Shown piece by piece: positions 1 through 39,499 of a stretch of DNA of 39,499 nt. Numbering within the stretch: the first letter of the stretch is position 1; the number at the start of each line of letters is the position of its first letter. Source of the stretch: a virus; the IMG/VR virus record IMGVR_UViG_3300045988_136409. One strand, 5' to 3'. A program made the translations under genes and the position numbers. The notes beneath the pieces were generated by a model that saw nothing but the letters and a program-made list of their open reading frames with translations, made no database searches and was not told the DNA's origin.

Positions 1-26
1 AAGCGCGAGACGGGGATCGAACCCGC
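1..26 (-). repeat. attL core: duplicated 3' fragment of a tRNA gene (26-bp direct repeat of 39474-39499)
   Basis: aagcgcgagacggggatcgaacccgc is identical at both window ends. The reverse complement gcggg-ttcgatc-cccgt-ctcgcgc-t reads as T-stem, T-loop, T-stem, 7-nt acceptor 3' strand and discriminator U. The flank at 27 onward is not tRNA-like. Confidence 0.75.
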
Positions 27-139
27 AAAGCATTTTTAACGGAAACGCCGAAAATACAGGAAATGCTGATAAACACTGGGTTTGCAATAACGTACGAAAT
101 GTACTATACGCGATAAAAATACACTATTTACATAGGTTT

Positions 140-181
140 TGCAACGCAATGCAACATGAATGCAACATGAAATGCAACATG
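140..181 (+). repeat. array of TGCAAC-type direct repeats, candidate integrase arm-type binding sites (int-proximal arm)
   Basis: TGCAACGC at 140-147 and TGCAACATG at 150-158, 161-169 and 173-181, spaced 11-12 nt, immediately downstream of the int stop codon. The same 9-mer occurs twice near attR (39417-39437). Confidence 0.6.
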
Positions 182-186
182 GATGA

Positions 187-1437
187 TTATGTAGCAATTC
201 GGTGTTCTTCAATAAATTTCATAAACTCTTTCTGACTTTTCTTGCTATCTTCTTTGCCAAAAAGGATAAGCCAGGCTCTGTACTTTTCCCACGGCATATT
301 TTCCGAGATAGGATTTGCAATATTATCAAAATATCCATCAATTTTATCATCAACAGCATTACGGATTTCGGAGAAGGTCTGGGTGTATACTTTTTTCATG
401 ATCTTATCAGACTTCCAGCCCCCGCGCTCCTGAGCATACTTGTCCGGGATACGCAGAGCTGCCATAACGGATGCGTTCAGGTGACGAAGATCATGAAAGG
501 TCATATGCTTAAAACGGTGCTCGTCTTGGAACTTGATCCACCGATGATAGATCTGAGCTTCGGTGAGGGTGACGAGCCTGTCCCCGGGGACCTTATCAAT
601 GAGAGATTTGATATAGGGCGGGATCCGGTGTGTACGGTTACGGTATTTGTTTTTGGCAATATCCTTACGATGATCCTTGCCACCTACGACAACAACTACC
701 TCTGCAATGCGGATGTGATCTCCGGAAATTGATTTCGTCTTCGTCAAGCCACGGATCTCCGACATCGAGAAACTGAGCCAGGCAGCCAGCAGGACCGGCA
801 GCTCCAGCTCGTTGCCTTTGATCGCCGGCAGAAGCGCCTCCGCAGGTATCAGATCAGGCACGCGCTCGGGAACTTCGGGAAGCTCAATGTTACGAAGAAC
901 ATCATCCAAAGAGCTTGTATATTTACGGATTACAGATGCAATCAGGCTCCATTCGTTCTGCAGACGTTTAGGAGAGAGCGTGACTCCTTTTTTTCGGTTA
1001 CACGGACGCTGGGATTCCATATTGACAGATTCCTGCAGGAGCTCTTTATCCATATCTTTGACACAAATCTGCATCAGGTCCTGAAAACCGTTCCGCTGGA
1101 TACACCTATAATCCTGGATAGTAGTAAGAGATCTATTCAGGACAAGACGGGATTCAATATATTTGTCTATCAATTCTGTAAGCGGAAGAAGAGTATAATC
1201 TACTTTTTTTTGCTTCGGCTGCTTTGCCAGTTCTTCTTCCTTCTGCAGAACAAATTGCGCTGCTGCAAGTTCTACAGTTTTTTTGGTGGGACCGGTAATG
1301 GTTTTATATTTTCTTGTTGTCTTCTGTTTGCCGTTTGGCATAAAAACAGGAGTGCCGTCTGCATTGTATACAGGCTCTTCGTGGCTATATGGTTTGACAC
1401 ACCATGTTCCACTCGGCAGCTTATAAGGTGTTGCCAT
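187..1437 (-). CDS. int: tyrosine recombinase, phage integrase
   Basis: The C-terminal segment FHDLRHLNAS...GGWKSDKIMKKVYTQT carries the HxxR and catalytic Tyr context. Start chosen at MATPYKLPSG (ATG 1437), preceded by AAGGAGGA. The gene is adjacent to the att core. Confidence 0.9.
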   Translation of the reverse strand: MATPYKLPSGTWCVKPYSHEEPVYNADGTPVFMPNGKQKTTRKYKTITGPTKKTVELAAAQFVLQKEEELAKQPKQKKVDYTLLPLTELIDKYIESRLVLNRSLTTIQDYRCIQRNGFQDLMQICVKDMDKELLQESVNMESQRPCNRKKGVTLSPKRLQNEWSLIASVIRKYTSSLDDVLRNIELPEVPERVPDLIPAEALLPAIKGNELELPVLLAAWLSFSMSEIRGLTKTKSISGDHIRIAEVVVVVGGKDHRKDIAKNKYRNRTHRIPPYIKSLIDKVPGDRLVTLTEAQIYHRWIKFQDEHRFKHMTFHDLRHLNASVMAALRIPDKYAQERGGWKSDKIMKKVYTQTFSEIRNAVDDKIDGYFDNIANPISENMPWEKYRAWLILFGKEDSKKSQKEFMKFIEEHRIAT

Positions 1438-1637
1438 AGTATCATCCTCCTTAAAATAGGCATAAAAATGCCCGGACATATGTTTGCATTGCAATCCGTC
1501 CGGGAAAATGATAAAATGCACTTGTTCAAGGTGATTTTTATCGGTTATCCCGGTAAAATCGGATCAGCTCCGGTGCTCCAACACTGGGGCTGATTTATAT
1601 TAATATTTTCAAATTTCAAGATTATTCTTGTAGGATA

Positions 1638-1666
1638 TTGACATATTATTATTAGAGTGCTATTAT
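1638..1666 (+). promoter_or_regulatory. near-consensus sigma-A-type promoter pointing into the 3' end of the SIR2 gene (antisense)
   Basis: TTGACA (1638-1643), 17-nt spacer, extended -10 TGcTATTAT (1658-1666). There is no plus-strand ORF downstream. Confidence 0.6.
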
Positions 1667-1671
1667 GTACT

Positions 1672-1736
1672 CGATTCGAAGCCAGCCCCTGTAAAGGTTC
1701 ACGACAGTGAACTGTTTACACGCTGGCTTTTCCTTT
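1672..1736 (+). ncRNA. candidate ~60-nt antisense sRNA, overlapping the last codons and stop of the SIR2 gene
   Basis: The predicted TSS is about 6-8 nt after the -10. A 51-nt near-perfect hairpin spans 1679-1729: AAGCCAGC/GCTGGCTT, TGTAAA/TTTACA and GTTCAC/GTGAAC, with loop GACA. It is followed by a TTTTCCTTT tract. Confidence 0.45.
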
Positions 1737-3335
1737 GAATAAATCATGATAGCACATCCAATCATAGATTTTAATCAAGCGTCTCAAATCTGATGAGTGA
1801 GGGTGTTCTTCACCAGTATAGATATCTGTAGGATATGAAGTGAGAACATCCATCAAATAATCTTTTAAAGATTCCTTTGTTAAATGCTTATATGGTAATC
1901 TTACAATGTAATATAGGTTTTGTGGGTATACAAAATTTTCACATATGGAAGCAATGGATGAACCATATACAATGGTTCTACTACGGCGAATAGATCCATT
2001 GTAAAAATCTTCGATATCGTGCTTTACATATTTGTGTATGCAATTAGGTATAGGCTTTTGAGCACCGGCTAAGTATTTGAATAATGGCATACTGCCACAT
2101 GTACGCGAAAGATGACCATACATTGTTTTTTCTAATAGGAGATCAGGATCAAACTGTTGATCATCAAATACAATATCACGATAAATATCTTCGGCACAAA
2201 ACGATGAATATGCAGATTCAGCAAGTTTGGAAATTCCGACTCCAATTACGAATTCAACATTCGTAAAGTCTTTAGTATTTTCAAAAGGTAACATAATTTT
2301 TACCTTATCTGTCGGAGTAGTGGTTGCTACCAAATCGTAGACATTTTCTTTAAGCATTCGCAACCATTTTACAGGATATTTTGTGTGATTCAACGCTAGA
2401 ATTTCATAAATCATCCCATAATCATTTACCTTAATACGAGTCATCGGAAAGTCCTTTCCGGAAACTGTATGATAAGATATAGAGTCAATCTCATAATCAT
2501 CCATCTTCTCAGAAGAAAGTCTTTCGATAAAAATAAAACGTGACTTAAGAGTATTTAACTGATCAGCATCCAGGCAAATGGCAATATTGTTTAAAATATT
2601 CTTTATATCTTCATCTGATATAGAGTAACCGATAAAAACAATAGGATGTTCGACAAAGATAGTCAATAATTTAGCGGCTAAGTACCTGCTTCTTAAATTT
2701 AACTTATTATAATCATCGGAATTTATAATAATGGAGCGTGGATCTGTACAGCATCCATGTATTTTATATATTTCACCAATTCCTTGCAGAGGTGAAAAAA
2801 GAAGCTTTTCCTGACCAATATATGTCATAAAATCAAATATATTTTCTAAAAGTAGATCGTAATTCGTTGTTATAATGCCAGCAATAGAATTATGAGAAAG
2901 TAATTTTAGTTTTTCAATTTCGTCAGGAAGCATGTATGCATGATTATTTGTAAACGAGGCAAAATAATTGGCAAGCGCAAGCCTGAAGGGAGTACAACCG
3001 CTTATTACTTCATTGCTATATTGAGTACGCATGGAAGCAAACCTGTCATCGGTATACCATATGCGGTTGTATTCTTGTTCTATATAATCAGCTATAATAG
3101 AGTTAAGTATATTCACAGAAGATGCATCTAAGTTGTCTTTATATATTTTCGCCTTTGCTGCGGAGGAATATTGGTAGAATAGCAAAGGGTTAGAATGATC
3201 AATTTCATCGCAAAAATGCATTAATAATCGCTCCCAATCTGGAGTACCTAAGTAACGGCGAGAGAATCCAGAGCCAATAAAGAGAAAGGGGAGAGATTCA
3301 TTAAAAACAAGGTAATCTTCAAGTTTCTTTTCCAT
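1716..3335 (-). CDS. SIR2-family (SIR2_2-like) protein with an unassigned ~240-aa C-terminal domain
   Basis: Motifs seen: LFIGSGFSRRYLGTPDWERLL (GxGxS), GIITTNYDLLLE, EIYKIHGC and PIVFIGYSISDEDIKNIL. Start chosen at MEKKLEDY (ATG 3335) with GAAAGGAA RBS. The longer track ORF would read through the upstream palindrome. Confidence 0.8.
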   Translation of the reverse strand: MEKKLEDYLVFNESLPFLFIGSGFSRRYLGTPDWERLLMHFCDEIDHSNPLLFYQYSSAAKAKIYKDNLDASSVNILNSIIADYIEQEYNRIWYTDDRFASMRTQYSNEVISGCTPFRLALANYFASFTNNHAYMLPDEIEKLKLLSHNSIAGIITTNYDLLLENIFDFMTYIGQEKLLFSPLQGIGEIYKIHGCCTDPRSIIINSDDYNKLNLRSRYLAAKLLTIFVEHPIVFIGYSISDEDIKNILNNIAICLDADQLNTLKSRFIFIERLSSEKMDDYEIDSISYHTVSGKDFPMTRIKVNDYGMIYEILALNHTKYPVKWLRMLKENVYDLVATTTPTDKVKIMLPFENTKDFTNVEFVIGVGISKLAESAYSSFCAEDIYRDIVFDDQQFDPDLLLEKTMYGHLSRTCGSMPLFKYLAGAQKPIPNCIHKYVKHDIEDFYNGSIRRSRTIVYGSSIASICENFVYPQNLYYIVRLPYKHLTKESLKDYLMDVLTSYPTDIYTGEEHPHSSDLRRLIKIYDWMCYHDLFKGKASV

Positions 3336-3349
3336 AAAATTCCTTTCTG

Positions 3350-3363
3350 TTGCACCGGTGCAA
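3350..3363 (-). promoter_or_regulatory. copy 1 of the 14-bp palindrome TTGCACCGGTGCAA (exact)
   Basis: On the minus strand it reads AAATTGCACCGGTGCAACAGAAAGGA and then the SIR2 ATG. It lies between the zinc-ribbon gene and the SIR2 gene. Confidence 0.8.
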
Positions 3364-3388
3364 TTTTTTAAAATGAAGATCATAAATA

Positions 3389-3673
3389 TTATAAGCCGTA
3401 TATTGTAGCACCAAAGATTTTACCACAGACAGGGCAAGAACGTTGATATAGTATATCGGGTAACTTTGGATAATTTTTATTCTTCCCATAAAGAGAAAAC
3501 ACCTGTTGATTATATTGTTTACAGGCAGTACAATTTCGATTTGCAGTAATAAGCACAGTATCAATATTCCACTCATTAATTTTAGGAATAATGCGTTTCA
3601 ACGAGACGTTTTCGATATCCGAGGGTAACATAGTCGAAGAACGGATACTGTTAAAGATTTTAGTGAATCCCAT
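3389..3673 (-). CDS. small zinc-ribbon protein resembling the conserved core of the phage MuF/SPP1-gp7 domain
   Basis: 94 aa with AAAGGGGAAA RBS and two Cys pairs, NCTACKQYNQQVFSL ... LYQRSCPVCG. By eye these parallel NPCPKCLPFVGKIL ... LYHPRCK in this phage's own MuF protein (22620-24260). Confidence 0.6.
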   Translation of the reverse strand: MGFTKIFNSIRSSTMLPSDIENVSLKRIIPKINEWNIDTVLITANRNCTACKQYNQQVFSLYGKNKNYPKLPDILYQRSCPVCGKIFGATIYGL

Positions 3674-3700
3674 ATAAATTTCCCCTTTTCATATTAGTAT

Positions 3701-4162
3701 TTATATCAGCTCCAACACGGAAACCGGGTCGAAGTAGATCACGTAATTATCATATTGCACACACAGACCGTACTTGCTCCGATAGCACTGCAGGGCTTCC
3801 TGCAGAAACTCCTCTGTGACACCCAGGTAATCAGCCATCTCATAAGAGGTAGTATAGTGTGCTTTGTGGCAGGAGATGATGCCGTGTAGTCCAATCAGTT
3901 TGTTATAACTCCAGAGTCTTGCCCGGAGCTCCTGCTTGCGGTTGGAATCAGAGGACTGATTGATAATGTCTCCGATGGTTGTGTGGTAATGCCCAAGCTC
4001 TTCGGCAAGCACGCAGGCCCTCTGTGTGGATCTCCGCACGGTCCGATTGATACCGATCACATCATTACGGATCAGTCCATCGGCCCGGGACTGGAATGGA
4101 GCATCTTCTATTACATATACATTTTCATCGGCAGCTTCCTGCAGTAAGTTCTCATAGGTCAA
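3701..4162 (-). CDS. ImmA/IrrE-like (DUF955) metallopeptidase-family protein, putative anti-repressor protease
   Basis: It has the motif VLAEELGHYHTT (HExxH-like, with the first His replaced by Glu). It sits immediately downstream of the XRE repressor gene, as in ImmR/ImmA pairs. TTG start. Confidence 0.65.
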   Translation of the reverse strand: MTYENLLQEAADENVYVIEDAPFQSRADGLIRNDVIGINRTVRRSTQRACVLAEELGHYHTTIGDIINQSSDSNRKQELRARLWSYNKLIGLHGIISCHKAHYTTSYEMADYLGVTEEFLQEALQCYRSKYGLCVQYDNYVIYFDPVSVLELI

Positions 4163-4176
4163 ATTGCATCATCCTT

Positions 4177-4707
4177 TTATTTTTCAGGTCTTTTCAGAAG
4201 TTTCATATCGGTCTGCATCTTTTCCTGTTCCTCAGGATCCGAAGCGTGATCATTATGAGCGGCACTAAGCCAGGCAGTATCATTTGGAATAGATATTCTG
4301 TTGGAAGGTACCTTAGCCAAATCGGCAGGCCATGTTTGGATACCATCCATGAAATTCCCCCTAAAGTGATCAATACTAGCGGAACAACGGTCAGATTCTT
4401 CGGCAAGTACAAAATCGACCATCTTTTTACCATGCTCATCGAGAGCACGGTATTTTTTTATATGGTCATATTCTGCCAGGGTAACATCATTTTGTTTCGC
4501 TTTTATTTTAACAGCATCTTGGAACAAGTAGTTTGCATCCACATTTAATGTTTCCATTAATTTATATATAATCTGTTCTTTCGGATGGCTGGTTTCCTTT
4601 TCGTAGTTGGTAATAGCAGAACCCGTTACGCCAATTAAGGCACCGAGTTCAGTTTGGGTTAGTCCCATTCGTTCTCTTGCTTCTTTTATTCTATATCCAA
4701 TACCCAT
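4177..4707 (-). CDS. XRE-family HTH repressor (CI/ImmR-like)
   Basis: N-terminal IKEARERMGLTQTELGALIGVTGSAITNYEKE is a helix-turn-helix. Start at MGIGYRIK (ATG 4707) after AAAGAGGTG. It is divergent from the Cro-like gene. Confidence 0.85.
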   Translation of the reverse strand: MGIGYRIKEARERMGLTQTELGALIGVTGSAITNYEKETSHPKEQIIYKLMETLNVDANYLFQDAVKIKAKQNDVTLAEYDHIKKYRALDEHGKKMVDFVLAEESDRCSASIDHFRGNFMDGIQTWPADLAKVPSNRISIPNDTAWLSAAHNDHASDPEEQEKMQTDMKLLKRPEK

Positions 4708-4731
4708 ACACGCACCTCTTTCTTTGTTACT

Positions 4732-4760
4732 AATATAACTCAAAAATCTTCAAATGTAAA
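4732..4760 (-). promoter_or_regulatory. candidate lysogenic promoter for the immR-immA-Zn ribbon-SIR2 operon
   Basis: On the minus strand: TTTACA (4760-4755), 17 nt, TATATT (4737-4732). Confidence 0.45.
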
Positions 4761-4792
4761 TATAAAAAACTCAAGATTTTTTAGAAAATGTA

Positions 4793-4821
4793 TTGACAAC
4801 TAAAGAATCATTAGTTATGAT
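4793..4821 (+). promoter_or_regulatory. early (lytic) promoter for the Cro-like operon
   Basis: TTGACA (4793-4798), 17 nt, TATGAT (4816-4821). Confidence 0.65.
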
Positions 4822-4845
4822 GTAGTTGAACTAAAGAAACTTTAG
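4798..4845. promoter_or_regulatory. two related inverted-repeat operators (O1 4798-4816, O2 4831-4845)
   Basis: O1 is AACTAAagaatcaTTAGTT and lies between the -35 and -10 of the early promoter. O2 is CTAAAGaaaCTTTAG. Both share ACTAAAGAA. Confidence 0.55.
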
Positions 4846-4860
4846 GAAAGGAGAACAAAA

Positions 4861-5067
4861 TTGAATTCTATTGTAGCACCTAACGTAAAAAGAATAATTA
4901 AGCAGAAATGTTTAAAGCAATCTGCGGTAGCTACCAGAGCCGGATATACTCCGAATCAGTTCTGCTCCATGATGAAAGGCCGAAAGATTATCAAAGATAT
5001 AGACATTATGAATATTGCGATAGCTTTGGGTGTAGATGCCAATGAACTATTTAAGAAGGAGGAATAA
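4861..5067 (+). CDS. Cro-like XRE-family HTH protein
   Basis: 68 aa with KQSAVATRAGYTPNQFCSMMKG HTH-like segment. TTG start after AAAGGAG. Divergent from the repressor gene. Confidence 0.75.
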   Translation: MNSIVAPNVKRIIKQKCLKQSAVATRAGYTPNQFCSMMKGRKIIKDIDIMNIAIALGVDANELFKKEE

Positions 5068-5070
5068 CCA

Positions 5071-5214
5071 ATGAACAAAGTAGATGAATTGATCGACGCA
5101 CGGGCTGAACACATCAAAAAGCGTATCGATGCAGGTAATGACATGGAAAATGAGATTGCCGAAAAGACGAAGGCTCTTGCAGAGCTGGTGTCTGCAAGAG
5201 CCAAAGGATATTAG
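5071..5214 (+). CDS. hypothetical small protein (47 aa, not in ORF track)
   Basis: ATG at 5071, 7 nt after AAGGAGGA. Helical, charged sequence MNKVDELIDARAEHIKKRIDAG... Confidence 0.5.
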   Translation: MNKVDELIDARAEHIKKRIDAGNDMENEIAEKTKALAELVSARAKGY

Positions 5215-5381
5215 CAGAGTGCCTTGCTATTCAATTCGACCAGTTTGTTGTAGATTTCCTGCATGAATTCTGCAACATCATGCCCATTGTCTTTGTTGGG
5301 GGCATAAGTGGTACTAGACATTTTGGCAACAGTAATATCTCTGACAACGTCAATAAGGTATTTGTTGACTCTGGGATCCAT
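5211..5381 (-). CDS. hypothetical small protein (56 aa)
   Basis: Start at MDPRVNKY after AAAGGAGG. Convergent with the preceding ORF. Confidence 0.5.
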   Translation of the reverse strand: MDPRVNKYLIDVVRDITVAKMSSTTYAPNKDNGHDVAEFMQEIYNKLVELNSKALC

Positions 5382-5539
5382 AATGAATACCTCCTTTCTA
5401 CAATTAAATGAAACAAATGTTCTGCAATAATTGTAGAAAACAAATGTTCGCATGTCAAGATAAAAATACAATATATGCACATTTTATTTTGAAATCAACA
5501 ATATATTGTGGATTTCGAGTAGGGAAGAAGGCAGCAGGA

Positions 5540-5722
5540 ATGAAGGACCCACATAAGCTTAAAATCGTGGCTTCTGATAAATCATCATTCGAGATCTGGT
5601 TGGATGATAAACAGATCCACCATGTAAAAGAATATGAACTGAAGAAAGTGGAAAAAGGAAATCTGGTGGAATTAACCCTGAAATTGTTGGTCACATATCC
5701 TAACCAAGAAAGTAATCAGTAG
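5540..5722 (+). CDS. hypothetical small protein (60 aa)
   Basis: Start at MKDPHKLK with a weak GAAGG RBS. It has a 23-nt convergent overlap with the next gene. Confidence 0.35.
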   Translation: MKDPHKLKIVASDKSSFEIWLDDKQIHHVKEYELKKVEKGNLVELTLKLLVTYPNQESNQ

Positions 5723-6065
5723 CAGCACGCTTTGCAAGTTCCATAAGAATAGAGAGAGAAGCATCAGTGGCTTTTGATTTTACTTTATTCCATAAGGACT
5801 TAGCCCGGATATTAGCCAGAAATTCATGTCCAAGAGGTGTGAGATCACCAATTAAAACTGTAGCACCTCCGTCGTAGTAATGAACATTTTCAATGAGACC
5901 GGATACACTGGCCTGCTTTATGTGATAAACAATTTCTTCATGGGAAAACTCAGCAAGATATTCTGATTCAAAAGTATCTCGATCATACTCCCACGGAGTA
6001 TCAAAATTACATTTTTCTTCTACGCTCAGAAGGATTCCGCGGATGCAGTCGGGGTTAAGTTTCAT
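5700..6065 (-). CDS. DUF2513-like hypothetical protein
   Basis: The N-terminus MKLNPDCIRGILLSVEEKCNF... resembles DUF2513-family proteins. AAGGAG RBS. The track ORF is over-extended upstream. Confidence 0.55.
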   Translation of the reverse strand: MKLNPDCIRGILLSVEEKCNFDTPWEYDRDTFESEYLAEFSHEEIVYHIKQASVSGLIENVHYYDGGATVLIGDLTPLGHEFLANIRAKSLWNKVKSKATDASLSILMELAKRAATDYFLG

Positions 6066-6159
6066 AGCGTATCTCCTTAAAGTGTGACAAGTTACTGAAA
6101 TTATTATAGGAGAAAACAAAACGTAATACAACAGAATATTCAGGAAGGAGACAGCAGGA

Positions 6160-6264
6160 ATGGAGAGAATCGACAGATTATATGCTCTGCTGGAGCATGA
6201 TGACATTGACGAGGACACCAAGGCAGCGCTGCGGTGGGCGATTTTTGAGTTAGAAGGGAAGTAA
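6160..6264 (+). CDS. hypothetical mini-protein (34 aa, not in ORF track)
   Basis: ATG at 6160 after AGGAAGGAG. Sequence MERIDRLYALLEHDDIDEDTKAALRWAIFELEGK. Confidence 0.4.
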   Translation: MERIDRLYALLEHDDIDEDTKAALRWAIFELEGK

Positions 6265-6268
6265 AAAG

Positions 6269-6562
6269 ATGCCGAAAACCAATCTTTTAAAAACAGAAGC
6301 AGCCAGAAAGAATTATGCATCCAGGGCCAGAGCGGGAATCAAACGGCACATAGAACTGAGCAAAGTGCCGGAGGACAAGATCGCCGCGAAGCAGAATGTG
6401 CAGGTAAGAACGCTGATGAACCGGATCGAGGATCCGGGATCCATGCGGCTGAGAGATCTGTGGGATCTGGCAGAGATCATAGATGCTCCGGTCGGAGAAC
6501 TGGCTGGTGGGGATCTGCCGGAGGAAATGCTGGCAAAACTTCTGCAACAGAAATTATTGTAA
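6269..6562 (+). CDS. hypothetical protein, possible HTH DNA-binding
   Basis: 97 aa. The segment NVQVRTLMNRIEDPGSMRLRDLWDLAEII looks HTH-like. Confidence 0.5.
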   Translation: MPKTNLLKTEAARKNYASRARAGIKRHIELSKVPEDKIAAKQNVQVRTLMNRIEDPGSMRLRDLWDLAEIIDAPVGELAGGDLPEEMLAKLLQQKLL

Positions 6563-6842
6563 CCACAGGTATCCGTGCCCTGTACGTGGTGTATTCCCAA
6601 CACCACACTCCCCTTTTACACAATTAGCGTGTGTGTCCAGTCCTCCCCTGGCTGGGCACCACGTAGAGGGCATGGGGACAAGCATCATATTATAGATCAC
6701 GCTTTGTGCGTGGTGCATCTTGCTGCATCACCATATGACGGCATATCATCCACTGCTATGATGGTATGTTGCCCTCTTTCTGGTGGTACCCGGGTAGATC
6801 AGCACCGGGGCCACGCAGAGAGCGTGATCGGAAAGGGCAAAC
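6563..6842 (+). ncRNA. GC-rich structured non-coding region (candidate cis-regulatory RNA, ncRNA or inverted-repeat element)
   Basis: No credible ORF. Hairpin GTGGTGTattcccaACACCAC lies at about 6586-6606. A long-range imperfect inverted repeat pairs GATCACGCTttgTGCGTGG (6695-6713) with CCACGCAgagAGCGTGATC (6811-6829), enclosing 97 nt that contain further hairpins. The region ends at the RBS of the 6843 gene. Confidence 0.45.
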
Positions 6843-7133
6843 ATGGAAATGATTAAGTATTATGCCAAGGAAGTTGTGAAAAACAAAGACGGTCACAAAT
6901 ACTGGGAAGCCAGCAATTCGCAGCTGACCGGGTATGTCTATGATGAAGTGAAGCAGTCAGTGCCAGAGGCTAAATATTATAACTTTGAAGGCTTGCAGAT
7001 TATTACGACGAATGACAAGCAGGAGCAGTCATTGCTGAGCACACTGGAAGTGATGGAGGACCTTTGCAATGAAAGGATAATCCAGATACATAGACTGAGA
7101 GATCAGATATATGGAGGGGATGCGGATGTATAA
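6843..7133 (+). CDS. hypothetical protein
   Basis: 96-aa ORF with a GGAAAGGG RBS-like sequence upstream. Confidence 0.55.
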   Translation: MEMIKYYAKEVVKNKDGHKYWEASNSQLTGYVYDEVKQSVPEAKYYNFEGLQIITTNDKQEQSLLSTLEVMEDLCNERIIQIHRLRDQIYGGDADV

Positions 7134-19502: not shown

Positions 19503-20875
19503 TGAGCGCAAGTAAGCTCCTGCTGTCAGAGAAATACAAAGCATTCCTGAAATGCGATGCTCCGGTGGAATTCCTGGAAGGAACCACGGCGGCAGGTAAA
19601 ACAACGGTAGGAATCTTCAAGTTTATGCTTAAGGTGGCGGAAAGCCCCAAGAAGCTGCATATCATTGCAGCGGATGACACTGGAACTGCTGAGAAGAACA
19701 TCATCAACAAGGATCTTGGTATATTGGATGATTTCGGGATCCTGGTGGAGTATAACGGCAGCGGAACCAAAGACGATAAGATTCCGCATCTGATTCTGCA
19801 TACTGGCAAGGGGGATAAAGTAATTTATGTGCTGGGCTACGGTAACAAGAAAAAGTGGAAGAAGGCCCTGGGTGGACAATATGGCTGTCTGTACATAGAT
19901 GAAGTAAATACCGCAGACATAGATTTTGTCAGAGAAGCATCCATGAGATGTGATTATCTGATGGCAACACTGAACCCGGATGATCCGGGACTGCCGGTGT
20001 ATAAAGAATATATCAACTGTGCGCGTCCTCTTCCGGAATGGAAGGATGAGACACCGCAGGAAATCATAGAGGAACTGAAAGAAGAGCCAAAGGACGGATG
20101 GATCCATTGGTTCTTTTCTTTTAAAGACAATGCAGGCCTTCCACCGGATAAGCTGCAGATGATCCTGCAAAACACACCTAAGGGTACCAAAATTTGGAAA
20201 AACAAGATTCAAGGTCTCCGCGGAAAAGCGACAGGGTTGGTATTCTCCAACTTTGTCAGAAAGAAACATGTTGTTACTGCTGCGTGGGTGAAGAAACAGA
20301 TTGCGGATGGGAATATCCGTTTCAGGAAGTTTACAGCAGGACTGGATACATCATATTCCTCAAAATCTCCGGATACTATTGCAATGATCTTCCAGGGCAT
20401 TACGGATGACCGCAAGCTGATCACACTAGCTGAGAAGGTATATAGCAATGCGGATCTCAGTGTGCCGCTGGCTCCTTCTGACACAGCGGTAAAGTTTATA
20501 GCTTTTCTGGATAGATGCAGATCGGAATGGGGATTTGCAAAAGAGTCTTTTATTGACTGCGCAGATGCGGCGACGATAACAGAACTTCGAAAGTATAAGC
20601 GCCTGCATGGGTGCCTTTATAATTTCATTGAGTCCTATAAGAAGGTAACAATACTGGACCGTATCAATTTACAACTGGGATGGATCCAGCAAGACTGCTA
20701 TCTGGTAGTTGAGGATTGTACAAACCATATCTCAGAATTGGAACGCTATTCATGGGACGAGGAAGAGGATGTTCCGGTACCGGAGGATAAGAACGACCAT
20801 ACGATCAATGCAAACCAGTACGGATGGATTCCATACCGGAATATGATTGGATTCGAGGAGGATAAACAGAGGTGA
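19502..20875 (+). CDS. terL: terminase large subunit
   Basis: Walker A-like EGTTAAGKTTVG. 457 aa, with a C-terminal nuclease-like region containing acidic residues. Position between terS and portal. Confidence 0.85.
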   Translation: MSASKLLLSEKYKAFLKCDAPVEFLEGTTAAGKTTVGIFKFMLKVAESPKKLHIIAADDTGTAEKNIINKDLGILDDFGILVEYNGSGTKDDKIPHLILHTGKGDKVIYVLGYGNKKKWKKALGGQYGCLYIDEVNTADIDFVREASMRCDYLMATLNPDDPGLPVYKEYINCARPLPEWKDETPQEIIEELKEEPKDGWIHWFFSFKDNAGLPPDKLQMILQNTPKGTKIWKNKIQGLRGKATGLVFSNFVRKKHVVTAAWVKKQIADGNIRFRKFTAGLDTSYSSKSPDTIAMIFQGITDDRKLITLAEKVYSNADLSVPLAPSDTAVKFIAFLDRCRSEWGFAKESFIDCADAATITELRKYKRLHGCLYNFIESYKKVTILDRINLQLGWIQQDCYLVVEDCTNHISELERYSWDEEEDVPVPEDKNDHTINANQYGWIPYRNMIGFEEDKQR

Positions 20876-20880
20876 ACCTG

Positions 20881-22470
20881 ATGGAAAAGATAAATGAGAA
20901 TATCAAAAGAGGTATACGGAGCTGGCTGAATGTTTCTCCGGCGAATCCCTATGTGTTCAATATCAATGAGATGATGGACTTCGAGGGGAATGCGATCCGA
21001 AACCGCATCTGGTATCGTGGTGACAGCAACGAACTGGAGCAGTTCTATGAGCAGAATGCGGAATATGCAGATAAATATAAATTCTGGTCCAGCAAGAGTA
21101 CACCGGGGATGGAAATGCGCAAGATCCACACAGGTGTTCCGGCGCTTACGGTGAGAACTCTGGCAGCAGTAGTCCTTCCGGATATGGGGGAATTTGAATT
21201 TTCCTCAGAGAATCAAAAGCAGAAACAGATATGGAAAGACATTGCAAAGCCTGAGAATAATAACTTTGCCGATAAGATAGAGGATGCAATCAAAGAGACG
21301 CTGTATATCGGAGACGGGGCTTTTAAAGTGTCCATTGATACAGAGCTCAGTAAGTATCCTATTTTAGAATGGTATGCCGGGGATCGTGTCGAAATCATCC
21401 GGAAAAAGGACAAGGTCAGGGAAGTAATATTTAAGACACCATACAGCGGAGGAGGCAAGACATATGTGCTCAATGAGATATATGGATATGGGTATGTAAA
21501 GAACGAACTGTATCTGGATAACAGACAGGTTCCGCTGACTACATTACAGATAACCGATTCACTGGAAGACGTGACCTTCGATAAAAGCGTTATGCTGGCG
21601 GTGCCTATGATGTTCTATAAGTCGGCAAAATATGAAGGACGTGGCGGAAGCATCTTTGACGGAAAGGTGGACAGCTATGATGCGCTGGATGAAGTATGGA
21701 GCCAGTGGATGGATGCACTGAGAGCAGGAAGAGCCAAAACATATATTCCGGACTGTCTGGTTCCGAGGGATCCGGAAACAGGAGCTGCGATAACACCAAA
21801 TCCGTTCGATAACAGATATTTTGCAGCAGAAGGAGACCAGCGCGAAGGGCAGAAAAACGTAATCGGTACAGACCAGCCGAGCATTCCTCATGACAGCTAT
21901 CAGGCTTCCTACTGTACGGCACTGGACCTTTGCCTGCAGGGGATCATCAGTCCTTCTACACTGGGGATTGATGTAAAAAAACTGGATAATGCAGAAGCGC
22001 AGCGTGAAAAGGAAAAAACAACGCTGTACACAAGAAATATTATCGTGGAAACTCTTCAGACAGTATTGCCACAGGTAGTATCCATGTGTATCAACGCATA
22101 TCACCTGATGAAGAATGAGGCAGTGGAAAGTGTAGAGGTAAATCTCCCATTTGGAGAATATGCCAATCCTTCATTTGAATCTCAGGTGGAAACAGTTGGT
22201 AAGGCAAAGCAGAGCGGAATCATGAGCATTGAGCGCTGTGTGGAGGAATTGTATGGTGACAGTCTGGATGATGATTGCAAAAAGGAAGAGATCGCAAGGC
22301 TCAAGGCAGAGCAGGGTATTCAGAGTATTCCGGAGCCGGAAATCAGGACGGATGCAGGAGAATTCAGGATAAACGGATTTACAGGAGGCAGTGATGGAAG
22401 TAAAAGTAGCGAAAAAAACATACCGGATGAACCGGGAGGAATACCAGGGGCTCCTGAAGGTGGCCAGTGA
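20881..22470 (+). CDS. portal protein (SPP1 gp6-like)
   Basis: About 530 aa, located after terL. ATG 20881 follows GAGGTG (the track start is GTG 20872). Confidence 0.8.
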   Translation: MEKINENIKRGIRSWLNVSPANPYVFNINEMMDFEGNAIRNRIWYRGDSNELEQFYEQNAEYADKYKFWSSKSTPGMEMRKIHTGVPALTVRTLAAVVLPDMGEFEFSSENQKQKQIWKDIAKPENNNFADKIEDAIKETLYIGDGAFKVSIDTELSKYPILEWYAGDRVEIIRKKDKVREVIFKTPYSGGGKTYVLNEIYGYGYVKNELYLDNRQVPLTTLQITDSLEDVTFDKSVMLAVPMMFYKSAKYEGRGGSIFDGKVDSYDALDEVWSQWMDALRAGRAKTYIPDCLVPRDPETGAAITPNPFDNRYFAAEGDQREGQKNVIGTDQPSIPHDSYQASYCTALDLCLQGIISPSTLGIDVKKLDNAEAQREKEKTTLYTRNIIVETLQTVLPQVVSMCINAYHLMKNEAVESVEVNLPFGEYANPSFESQVETVGKAKQSGIMSIERCVEELYGDSLDDDCKKEEIARLKAEQGIQSIPEPEIRTDAGEFRINGFTGGSDGSKSSEKNIPDEPGGIPGAPEGGQ

Positions 22471-22619: not shown

Positions 22620-24260
22620 ATGCCTAAGATAAATTCAGAATATGATATCGGAGCAGCATTCGAAGCTATTGAGAATGAACTCATTGCTTCCATGATCCGG
22701 AATATGCGAAGACATAAGATTGAGGAAATCGATGAGGACAAGCAGTGGTCCATGTGGCAGGCAGAACAACTCCGGGCACTGGAAAAGTATAGAAAAGAGA
22801 ATCAGGAGCGGTTCGGTGCGAAATTCAAGGATATCAATAACCGAATTGAAGCACTGATCAGTACTGCCAGGGATGAAGGAGATATGGAGCAGGAGATAGC
22901 CATACTGGAGGCTATAAAGAAAGGTTTCCCGGCAAGAAGAGTAAGTCCGGGAGCATCGGCGGCATTCTTCCGGTTGAACCAGAGGAAGCTGGAGGCGCTG
23001 ATCTGGGCGACCACATCAGACATGGAAAAGGCCGAGACAGCTGTCCTGCGCATGGCAAATGACCAATATCGCAAGATTATTTTTAATGCTCAGGTATATG
23101 CCAACAGTGGAGCAGGGACTTATGAGAAGGCGGTAGACATGGCTACAAAGGATTTCATTGCCGCTGGTCTTAACTGTGTGGAATATGCCAATGGATCCAG
23201 ACACACATTGGCAGACTATGCGGACATGGCAATACGGACAGCCAGTAAGCGTGCATACCTGCAGGGGGAAGGGCAGAAAAGGCAGGAATGGGGGATATCC
23301 ACGGTGATCATGAATAAGCGTGGAAATCCCTGCCCCAAGTGTTTACCGTTTGTTGGTAAGATACTGATCGATGATGTATGGAGCGGTGGAAGCGCCAAGG
23401 ATGGACCATATCCCCTGATGAGCGCGGCAATAGCAGCAGGGCTTTATCATCCCAGGTGTAAGGATAGCCATACGACCTATTTCCCAGAACTGGAAGATTT
23501 GGATAATGAATACAGCAAAAAGGATATAGAAGATATAGAGGAGCAGAACAGACAGGAGGCAAGACAGCAATATGCAGAGAGACAGGAGAAAAAGTATGAT
23601 CGGCTTGCAAAGTATTCTATTGATTCAGAAAACAAAAGAGTATATGCCGAACGCTCGCGAGAATGGAATATAGAAGCTACAAAACGATTTGAAAATACTG
23701 AGGGACTAGAAAAGTATATAGAAGAAGAGTATAATGGAAAGGTTGATAGGGATGTAAGGGAATTGGATATCCGACAGGTTGGATTGACATTAACAGAGCT
23801 TGAAAAAGTTATTGCTGATTTTCAAAATGCAAAGGTATATTTTTCTGGAATTAATGTATCTGACAAAGGGAAAGCGGGATTCCTGCCAAACGGTGAACTT
23901 GTGTTGAGCAGTAGATATTATCATAAGCCGACAGTAAAACTGATTGGAACTGGGTATCATGAAGCAGGTCATCTTCTTGAACTGGCCCTGATCCATAAAA
24001 ATAATTTGAAATGTTCGGAAGATGAGGTTATAGAACTATATGTAACGGGAAAATATGCAAAAGATATTGTTAAAAGAGCGTATGATAGACTTCGAACAAA
24101 TAAATCACTTAAATCACTGAGAAGCGAAATATCAAACTATGCGTTAACGGACGAATCCGAGACTATTGGGGAGGCTGTTAAAGACTATTATATGAATGGC
24201 TTTGAAGCATCAATATTATCACGGCAAATCATAAAAGTTTTACAGGAGGAATTGAGATGA
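22620..24260 (+). CDS. MuF/SPP1-gp7-family head morphogenesis protein with C-terminal HExxH domain
   Basis: MuF core NKRGNPCPKCLPFVGKIL...LYHPRCKDSHTTYFP at about residues 230-290. The C-terminal 200 aa contain GTGYHEAGHLLELAL (HExxH). Confidence 0.8.
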   Translation: MPKINSEYDIGAAFEAIENELIASMIRNMRRHKIEEIDEDKQWSMWQAEQLRALEKYRKENQERFGAKFKDINNRIEALISTARDEGDMEQEIAILEAIKKGFPARRVSPGASAAFFRLNQRKLEALIWATTSDMEKAETAVLRMANDQYRKIIFNAQVYANSGAGTYEKAVDMATKDFIAAGLNCVEYANGSRHTLADYADMAIRTASKRAYLQGEGQKRQEWGISTVIMNKRGNPCPKCLPFVGKILIDDVWSGGSAKDGPYPLMSAAIAAGLYHPRCKDSHTTYFPELEDLDNEYSKKDIEDIEEQNRQEARQQYAERQEKKYDRLAKYSIDSENKRVYAERSREWNIEATKRFENTEGLEKYIEEEYNGKVDRDVRELDIRQVGLTLTELEKVIADFQNAKVYFSGINVSDKGKAGFLPNGELVLSSRYYHKPTVKLIGTGYHEAGHLLELALIHKNNLKCSEDEVIELYVTGKYAKDIVKRAYDRLRTNKSLKSLRSEISNYALTDESETIGEAVKDYYMNGFEASILSRQIIKVLQEELR

Positions 24261-39473: not shown

Positions 39474-39499
39474 AAGCGCGAGACGGGGATCGAACCCGC
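39474..39499 (-). tRNA. 3' end (T-arm plus acceptor strand) of a tRNA gene continuing beyond the window; attR core
   Basis: The reverse complement is GCGGG TTCGATC CCCGT CTCGCGC T. No CCA is encoded. The isotype cannot be determined from this fragment. Confidence 0.6.

Follow-up and report, generated by a model that had tools for sequence, protein, structure and literature searches.

A mobile SIR2 cassette beside a MuF-like gene in the lysogeny module of a gut Lachnospiraceae prophage

Introduction

Do two adjacent genes in the lysogeny operon of a prophage form one defence system, or are they neighbours by chance? The question is raised by IMG/VR virus record IMGVR_UViG_3300045988_136409, a stretch of 39,499 nucleotides (the window, whose coordinates are used throughout). 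The genes of its classic lysogeny module are on the minus strand, in the order immR, immA, an open reading frame (ORF) of 94 codons, an ORF for a SIR2-family protein of 539 residues, and a tyrosine integrase gene (int). A preliminary description, made from the sequence alone, had proposed that the two middle genes are an uncharacterised defence pair. Its reading of the layout agrees with the coordinates: the genes lie on the same strand as immR-immA, the 94-codon ORF (here mini-MuF) starts 27 nt past the immA stop, and the SIR2 gene occupies the cargo ("moron") slot between the immR-immA operon and int. The pairing itself fared differently. We consider it likely that these are two independent accessory genes, both expressed in the lysogen and neighbours by chance, and that the SIR2 gene is a self-contained, single-gene candidate for abortive infection.

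The two genes do not co-occur

We searched the loci of each family for the other gene using hidden Markov models (HMMs). The mini-MuF HMM matched 0 of 11 SIR2-family loci and the SIR2 HMM 0 of 37 mini-MuF loci; the former did recover all 37 of its own loci, which served as positive control. A pair conserved across other prophages was therefore found from neither side.

The genomic context of the SIR2 gene points the same way. The cassette that carries it (1563-3363) recurs with 98.6% identity in two other loci (L012/L013), where it lies between a different helix-turn-helix (HTH) repressor and a serine recombinase and where the 94-residue gene is absent. SIR2 neighbours differ across the five lineages that cover the 11 loci: homologues at 70%, 57% and 39% identity are found in the contexts HTH-SIR2-int, immR-immA-Big_2-SIR2-int and lysin...D12 methylase-SIR2, respectively. 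In the window, the cassette boundary lies between the mini-MuF and SIR2 genes. Mini-MuF falls inside the immR-immA backbone homology block (3349-4264, 93.6%) and outside the cassette. These comparisons of related loci establish, at the level of sequence, a mobile SIR2 cassette with defined boundaries, and they suggest that the two-gene architecture is an accident of cassette insertion.

The last of these contexts is that of Clostridium perfringens prophages (L045-L047 3121-5590), in which the SIR2 homologue follows holin/lysin genes and, in three of four places, lies directly downstream of a D12-class DNA methyltransferase.

The insertion site and its alternative cargo

Prophages with a 97%-identical mini-MuF gene share two blocks of DNA homology with the window, 4264-3349 (93.6%) and 1596-1 (91%, including the int region). 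Between these blocks, an 878-bp segment with an NYN-domain gene replaces the SIR2 segment. The upstream junction is a palindrome, TTGCACCGGTGCAA, with variants TTGCACC(G/A)GTGCAA, and cargo always starts immediately after it. The palindrome is common to the window and to the NYN-type, Abi_2-type, empty-site and L012 loci. The downstream junction was set by the overlap of the two homology blocks: cargo ends before AAATCAGCCCCAGTG... (1596-1563), a segment with a terminator-like hairpin on the plus strand (1575-1590). This second hairpin contains GCACCGGAGC, and both junctions travel with the SIR2 cassette into the unrelated backbone of L012. In empty sites, 12 nt (TTTCAATAAAAA) stand where the cargo would be; such sites were seen at ~5310-5370 in L028, L034, L032, L027, L038 and L039. 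The palindrome and hairpin may serve as terminators, recombination sites or both.

Across 31 related loci, the slot after mini-MuF was empty in 11, held an NYN gene in 19 (10 viral or genomic loci and nine metagenomic places) and an Abi_2 gene in one; none held SIR2. The NYN cargo encodes a protein of 221 residues (L001-L009 6537-7202, Pfam 3e-10) and was seen in hundreds of metagenome blocks. The Abi_2 cargo encodes a protein of 358 residues (L035 5495-6571, 1.3e-28) and lies beside a large serine-recombinase-like ORF. Both cargos carry their own consensus-like TTGACA/TATAAT boxes. In the SIR2 cassette, the ATG follows the junction after only 28 nt, which hold a ribosome-binding site and no promoter.

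We interpret the repressor-integrase interval, from these alignments, as a cargo hotspot with a fixed insertion point that receives interchangeable defence-type genes or none. Prophage cargo hotspots are known, among them the defence hotspots of P2 and P4. The slot described here resembles the latter in its fixed insertion point, swappable defence genes and conserved backbone; it differs in its lineage, Lachnospiraceae siphophage-like prophages, and in its junctions, a short palindrome/hairpin pair.

The SIR2 protein belongs to a catalogued candidate family

The minus-strand SIR2 ORF (1716-3383) has 555 codons when counted from the first ATG. Translation most likely starts at the ATG at 3335, which is preceded at 6 nt by an AAAGGA ribosome-binding site and gives 539 residues. 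We rejected the longer form because its start (3383) lies outside the mobile cassette, which begins at 3363, and because homologues have about 520-540 residues.

The only Pfam domain in the protein is SIR2_2 (PF13289), at residues 154-252 (E 1.4e-21, 77.5 bits against a cut-off of 24.5), in keeping with the family assignment first made by eye. The preliminary description had placed the architecture outside the known systems. This did not hold, and comes close to what that description itself had named as grounds for refutation: the PADLOC model PDLC04968 of the candidate family PDC-S25 matches over the full length (E 3.4e-144, 479.7 bits; residues 2-530 against profile positions 11-515 of 517). 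A second PADLOC model, PDLC04967, matches at 6e-49, and the PHROG family phrog_2695 at 1e-121 (positions 9-527 of 531). Weaker matches, to the ThsA, Dsr1 and LmuA models, were confined to the SIR2 domain. By profile comparison, the protein is thus a member of PDC-S25, a catalogued family of single-gene computational candidates.

The family is large. A homology search returned more than 3,497 homologues; the 120 matches listed have 475-563 residues and cover 86-100% of the query. The named sources among them are Firmicutes (Clostridium, Paenibacillus, Brevibacillus, Romboutsia, Lachnospiraceae) and one member of the Fusobacteriota; Haliovirga is included. In an alignment of 61 sequences, the TTNYD (N158) and KIHG (H193) motifs do not vary, and conservation extends to the C-terminal half. 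N158 and H193 correspond to N112 and H152 of ThsA, and H193 also to H146 of KomC; these ThsA and KomC residues are the ones mutated in deposited inactive structures.

The AlphaFold2 model (pLDDT 85) consists of a SIR2 domain, a linker and an all-helical C-terminal domain (Table 1). Foldseek against the Protein Data Bank (PDB) placed ThsA, DSR2 and KomC on top, each superposing on the SIR2 part only; KomC is also the best PDB sequence match to the SIR2 core (2e-15). The preliminary description had seen no motif in the C-terminal region, and we likewise found no confident relative for it. Foldseek against the PDB gave the domain no confident match, with long DSR2 alignments at root-mean-square deviations of 17-21 A, and the model had no match below E 0.1 among viral structures. 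A homology search with residues 320-539, aimed at fusions to other effectors, returned five short fragments only.

Relation to known SIR2 systems

The closest relation is to PDC-S25/phrog_2695 itself: the match covers both domains, the length class is the same, and the gene is likewise single in prophage or island contexts. We see no structural difference from this family, which is itself a computational candidate only.

Among characterised proteins, it resembles DSR2 and ThsA most, in having a predicted SIR2 NADase effector. With Thoeris ThsA it shares SIR2 homology and the aligned catalytic Asn and His, and it would probably likewise deplete nicotinamide adenine dinucleotide (NAD+). The C-terminal domain, however, is all-helical (370-539) and not a Rossmann-like SLOG domain, in agreement with the preliminary description, which had seen nothing SLOG-like there, and ThsA alignments cover only ~316-348 columns, that is, the SIR2 part. 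No ThsB/TIR gene is nearby (the flanks are mini-MuF and int), nor is there a TIR domain in the gene tables of the related SIR2 loci, which speaks against signalling by glycocyclic ADP-ribose (gcADPR). With DSR1 and DSR2 the protein shares its build: one polypeptide with a SIR2 NADase-type domain at the N-terminus, followed by a region made of helices. It has about half their size, as noted before (539 against ~1000-1250 residues), the NCBIfam Dsr1 model scores 9.5 bits against a cut-off of 1400, and the PADLOC Dsr1 match is confined to the SIR2 region. KomC (Kongming) and SIR2-HerA belong to multi-gene systems (KomA/B, HerA), whereas no such genes flank SIR2 in 11 of 11 loci. Similarly, compared with SIR2-HerA, SPARSA and AVAST-5, no HerA, prokaryotic Argonaute (pAgo) or STAND NTPase is fused to the SIR2 protein or found among its neighbours. 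The absence of TIR, HerA, pAgo and STAND partners, reported earlier for the window, thus extends to the related loci.

A possible mechanism for the SIR2 protein

The working analogy for the mechanism is DSR2, which, according to PDB titles, is switched on when a phage tail-tube protein binds to it directly. The SIR2 protein would carry an N-terminal NADase of the ThsA/DSR2/KomC type, held inactive until the family-specific, all-helical C-terminal domain senses a component of an infecting phage. Hydrolysis of NAD+ by the SIR2 domain would then halt the infected cell and so shield the population of lysogens. The gene rides on its 1.8-kb cassette, inserted in the hotspot that separates the end of the immR-immA operon from int. 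The cassette has a ribosome-binding site but lacks a promoter, which makes read-through from the lysogeny promoter in the immR region (promoter-like site 4760-4732) the likeliest way for the gene to be expressed, in line with the earlier view that the gene is probably transcribed in the lysogen. NADase activity, trigger, abortive-infection outcome and read-through transcription are all predictions here, as is any function of mini-MuF.

Several points weigh against this picture of two unconnected genes and a self-contained SIR2 effector. The C-terminal domain had no recognisable relative in the searches described above (Foldseek against PDB and viral structures, homology search), and its sensor role is suggested by analogy only. 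A literature search found no paper reporting phage protection or NAD+ depletion by any PDC-S25 member. The palindrome between mini-MuF and SIR2 could attenuate read-through, and mini-MuF and SIR2 may interact in a lineage-specific manner in this one phage. As for mini-MuF, its structural model is of moderate confidence only (pLDDT 61.5), and relatives in two loci (L042, L053) lie in head-tail or tail modules, so that the link to lysogeny operons is not universal.

Mini-MuF is related to the core of MuF head proteins

MuF2 is the branch of the MuF superfamily that corresponds to PF06152; its genes normally lie just downstream of the portal gene, and its function is still unknown (PMC5576092). 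Overall, 85-87% of muf genes adjoin portal or terminase genes (Jamet et al. 2017, PMC5576092).

The 94-residue ORF has a GGGGA ribosome-binding site and, as described earlier, two Cys pairs, C48-x2-C51 and C80-x2-C83. Scans against Pfam, NCBIfam and PADLOC returned only sub-threshold zinc-ribbon noise and no PF06152 match, and the sole PHROG trace was to phrog_581, "minor head protein" (E 0.056). We then searched 1.84 billion representatives with a profile of the protein and two close homologues and obtained 73 relatives. Among 71 relatives scanned, 29 had Pfam PF06152 (Phage_min_cap2). In the ones examined closely, the match falls at profile positions ~212-300, in most cases above the gathering score; for instance, a relative of 95 residues (P0173) scores 51 bits against a cut-off of 26. 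These positions correspond to residues 213-293 of the MuF2 head protein encoded in the window, the stretch (~213-293) that holds its NPCPKC...HPRC core.

Hhalign of the mini-MuF family against residues 213-293 of this MuF2 protein gave E 9e-4 with a probability of only 23%, pairing CxxC with CxxC and CPxC with HPRC at 22% identity over 73 columns. BLASTP gave nine identities in 22 positions (E 0.016), which is suggestive only. Foldseek with the AlphaFold2 model returned almost exclusively matches named "Minor capsid protein" (TMq 0.5-0.58), in keeping with the expected structural relation. The preliminary description had seen in the small protein a mirror of the phage's own MuF protein: the relation to the MuF core stands at family level, by profile and fold, while descent as a fragment of the phage's own gene does not, given 22% identity. 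Profile and fold searches thus identify a stand-alone MuF-core relative that was not copied from this phage's own muf.

Mini-MuF has the CxxC...H/CPxC core and the fold matches to minor capsid proteins in common with MuF2/Phage_min_cap2 (SPP1 gp7-type) head proteins. It differs from them in its size (94 against ~300-550 residues, without the rest of the domain), in its second metal-ligand motif (CPxC, not HPxC) and in its place, in the lysogeny operon after immA and not beside portal or terminase genes. The portal gene of this phage lies at 20872-22470.

The gene is well preserved. Copies with at least 97% identity were found in nine metagenomic places, 21 viral contigs and one Waltera acetigignens genome, the single mini-MuF locus of our genome scan. 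The ORF is intact in 32 of the 32 copies compared, with pN/pS 0.12 over eight alleles; these values indicate purifying selection at the sequence level and, for that reason, a functional gene that needs no downstream effector. Eight residues (D38, C48, C51, S60, G63, P72, C80, C83) are invariant in 16 small family members at 30-68% identity. We also considered a decayed head-gene fragment and rejected it, because the 32 copies are intact at pN/pS 0.12 and the Cys ligands are conserved at 30-50% identity.

In related loci (Table 1) the family recurs directly after prophage repressors, either alone or fused to Mrr-nuclease or membrane domains. As a mimic of the MuF core, the protein might, very tentatively, be a module that binds a phage component and acts in superinfection exclusion, independently of SIR2. 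One such fusion (L049/L050 3236-4288) is a protein of 350 residues with an N-terminal zinc ribbon, a transmembrane segment, Mrr_cat (1.4e-31) and a C-terminal mini-MuF. Longer relatives (P0148-P0201, 200-540 residues) look like an uncharacterised multi-domain family of gut Firmicute phages. Many share an N-terminal helical module, ...YVLQRKATEHKKNxxxDLAIACLRKSNxxSD...HPEFxDKRIxN..., and some add a C-terminal module, SNRPFVDDRT...LPxxAPKSxxGYxRMKNxNSxNY; neither module has a Pfam assignment.

Position 3532, after codon 47 of mini-MuF, is a recurrent breakpoint or insertion site. Homology stops there at the same nucleotide in two loci (L010 4142 and L011 4142), and past it their ORFs continue into two unrelated tails (P0010/P0012; P0011; 64 residues). 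The ORF of L010 is followed by an integrase gene on the opposite strand, HTH_17 and MobA_MobL, an arrangement that resembles a mobilisable element; the ORF of L011 is followed by DUF6061 and ABC-transporter genes.

Alternative explanations

We weighed five other readings, from the least to the most improbable. The first, which we think rather unlikely, extends the exclusion idea for mini-MuF: as a mimic of the MuF core, it would sense or block incoming related phages by binding their portal or DNA-end complex, either as an assembly or ejection poison expressed from the repressor operon or fused to effectors (Mrr nuclease, membrane domains). It would then define a new exclusion or defence family, and might cooperate loosely with a downstream SIR2, NYN or Abi_2.

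Alternatively, mini-MuF could be a generic sensor or adaptor, one module serving many effectors, either those encoded downstream (NYN, Abi_2, SIR2, BrnT) or those joined to it in a fusion (Mrr_cat, membrane domains). Defence-type genes do follow mini-MuF in several lineages (NYN, Abi_2, BrnT and, in the window, SIR2), the mini-MuFs that precede Abi_2 in L035 and L043 each share only ~40% identity with that of the window, and the Mrr_cat-mini-MuF fusion exists. However, 11 of 22 close viral loci have no downstream effector and still keep the gene intact, the NYN and Abi_2 cargos have their own promoters and lie 250 nt away, and prophages often carry these effectors where mini-MuF is absent. The simpler explanation is that cargo gathers in the repressor-integrase interval anyway, and we hold the sensor-adaptor reading to be unlikely.

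Mini-MuF might instead serve the ImmR/ImmA switch as a regulator, say by modulating the ImmA protease or the stability of the repressor, and have no part in exclusion. This would fit its position directly after immA or a repressor in at least six divergent lineages, at short translational coupling distances (9-27 nt). Yet three repressor types precede it, including an S24 LexA-like repressor without ImmA; some phages have it joined to nuclease or membrane domains, others carry it in tail modules, and low GC marks it as an imported gene. We hold this role to be quite unlikely, though still a live alternative to exclusion.

That the SIR2 protein is no immune effector at all, and is instead an enzyme of benefit to the phage (a deacylase, an ADP-ribosyltransferase or a remodeller of NAD+ or signal metabolism) or an addiction-module toxin, is very unlikely. 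SIR2 domains also act as deacylases and ADP-ribosyltransferases, and the literature search found no experimental datum on PDC-S25. Against this, the closest relatives in sequence and structure are all defence NADases (ThsA, DSR2, KomC), the gene lies in moron slots at prophage ends beside other defence cargo, and it matches a PADLOC defence-candidate model.

Finally, a true two-gene system, in which mini-MuF, as sensor, decoy or antitoxin, would govern the SIR2 NADase specifically, is highly improbable: the genes are adjacent, 53 nt apart on the same strand and probably co-transcribed, and binding of a phage head component by a mimic of the MuF core is plausible, but the families do not co-occur in the 11 SIR2 and 37 mini-MuF loci, a near-identical cassette is found in another backbone without the small gene, the cassette boundary separates the two, mini-MuF is intact and under purifying selection in 11 cargo-free loci, and PADLOC treats PDC-S25 as a single gene.

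The surrounding lysogeny module

The features of the locus and the gene orders of related loci are collected in Table 1. GC is ~33% across 1600-3600, against 45-50% in the flanks (immA, int). The true start of immR is probably an internal ATG near 4707. Two divergent promoter-like sites lie in the immR promoter region; promoter and terminator scans gave counts no higher than the shuffled expectation, so single sites are hints only. No Rfam RNA family was found in window positions 1-7000, and megablast of 1500-4800 against the GenBank phage collection gave no match. A DUF2513 protein (5700-6320, minus strand, Pfam 5e-22) is encoded in the early-gene region on the strand opposite to its neighbours and is a possible accessory gene.

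The ends of the window (1-26 and 39474-39499) form a perfect 26-bp direct repeat, which is found again at the end of the NYN-type loci (L001 8764-8789). It is probably the attL/attR core, which would make the window one complete prophage.

Table 1. Features of the locus in window coordinates (residue numbers for protein domains) and gene orders of related loci
Feature	Position or locus	Strand	Basis or remark
int (tyrosine integrase), last gene before attachment repeat	187..1521	-	Pfam Phage_integrase 2e-07
Downstream junction AAATCAGCCCCAGTGTTGGAGCACCGGAGCTGAT, hairpin	1563..1596	-	Backbone homology picks up again at this point, upstream of int
Mobile SIR2 cargo cassette, 1801 bp, ~33% GC, both flanking hairpin junctions included	1563..3363	n/a	Homology boundaries
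SIR2 gene (539 aa)	1716..3335	-	SIR2_2, PDC-S25 and phrog_2695 matches
Predicted SIR2 NADase-type domain	residues ~1-337		AlphaFold2 model
Low-confidence linker of SIR2 protein	residues 340-369		AlphaFold2 model
All-helical C-terminal domain of SIR2 protein	residues 370-539		AlphaFold2 model
Upstream junction palindrome TTGCACCGGTGCAA, 14 bp	3350..3363	-	Plus strand reads as hairpin, then T-run
Mini-MuF gene (94 aa), stand-alone Zn-binding core of MuF2/Phage_min_cap2 (CxxC...CPxC)	3389..3673	-	Profile and fold searches
immA, Peptidase_M78 anti-repressor protease	3701..4162	-	Pfam 9.8e-09
immR, HTH_3 repressor	4177..4743	-	Pfam 8.5e-14
Promoter-like site of the immR region	4760-4732	-	Consensus match only; divergent from plus-strand site
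Promoter-like site	4793-4821	+	Consensus match only
Canonical MuF2 head protein of the phage (546 aa), comparator	22620..24260	+	Pfam Phage_min_cap2 3.8e-33
SIR2 locus	L012/L013		repressor-SIR2-serine recombinase
SIR2 locus	L014		HTH-SIR2-int
SIR2 locus	L016		immR-immA-Big_2-SIR2-int
SIR2 locus (C. perfringens)	L045-L048		lysin...D12 methylase-SIR2
Mini-MuF locus	L049/L050		immR-immA-[Zn-ribbon/transmembrane (TM)/Mrr_cat/mini-MuF fusion]-int
Mini-MuF locus	L051		immR-immA-mini-MuF-choline-binding protein-int
Mini-MuF locus	L052		immR-immA-[480-aa protein ending in mini-MuF]
Mini-MuF locus	L043		S24 repressor-mini-MuF-Abi_2
Mini-MuF locus	L044		HTH-long form-BrnT
Mini-MuF locus	L019		HTH-137 aa-TM2-mini-MuF

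Implications

There is no new kind of system at this locus. What is of interest is the cargo hotspot in gut Lachnospiraceae prophages, together with an undescribed family of stand-alone MuF cores downstream of prophage repressors. In a human-gut Lachnospiraceae host, one prophage backbone appears to swap single-gene immune cassettes at a site that is precise to the nucleotide and holds SIR2, NYN, Abi_2 or no cargo. Should PDC-S25 proteins prove to be NADases that act by abortive infection, the locus would be a clean natural example, and the half-size SIR2 protein with its helical putative sensor would be a small system in which to study the triggering of SIR2 effectors. An isolated MuF core made together with the repressor would be a fresh lead on a head-protein domain of still unknown function. 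The hotspot itself would help in studying how temperate phages equip their hosts with defences, and could be mined for further cargo.

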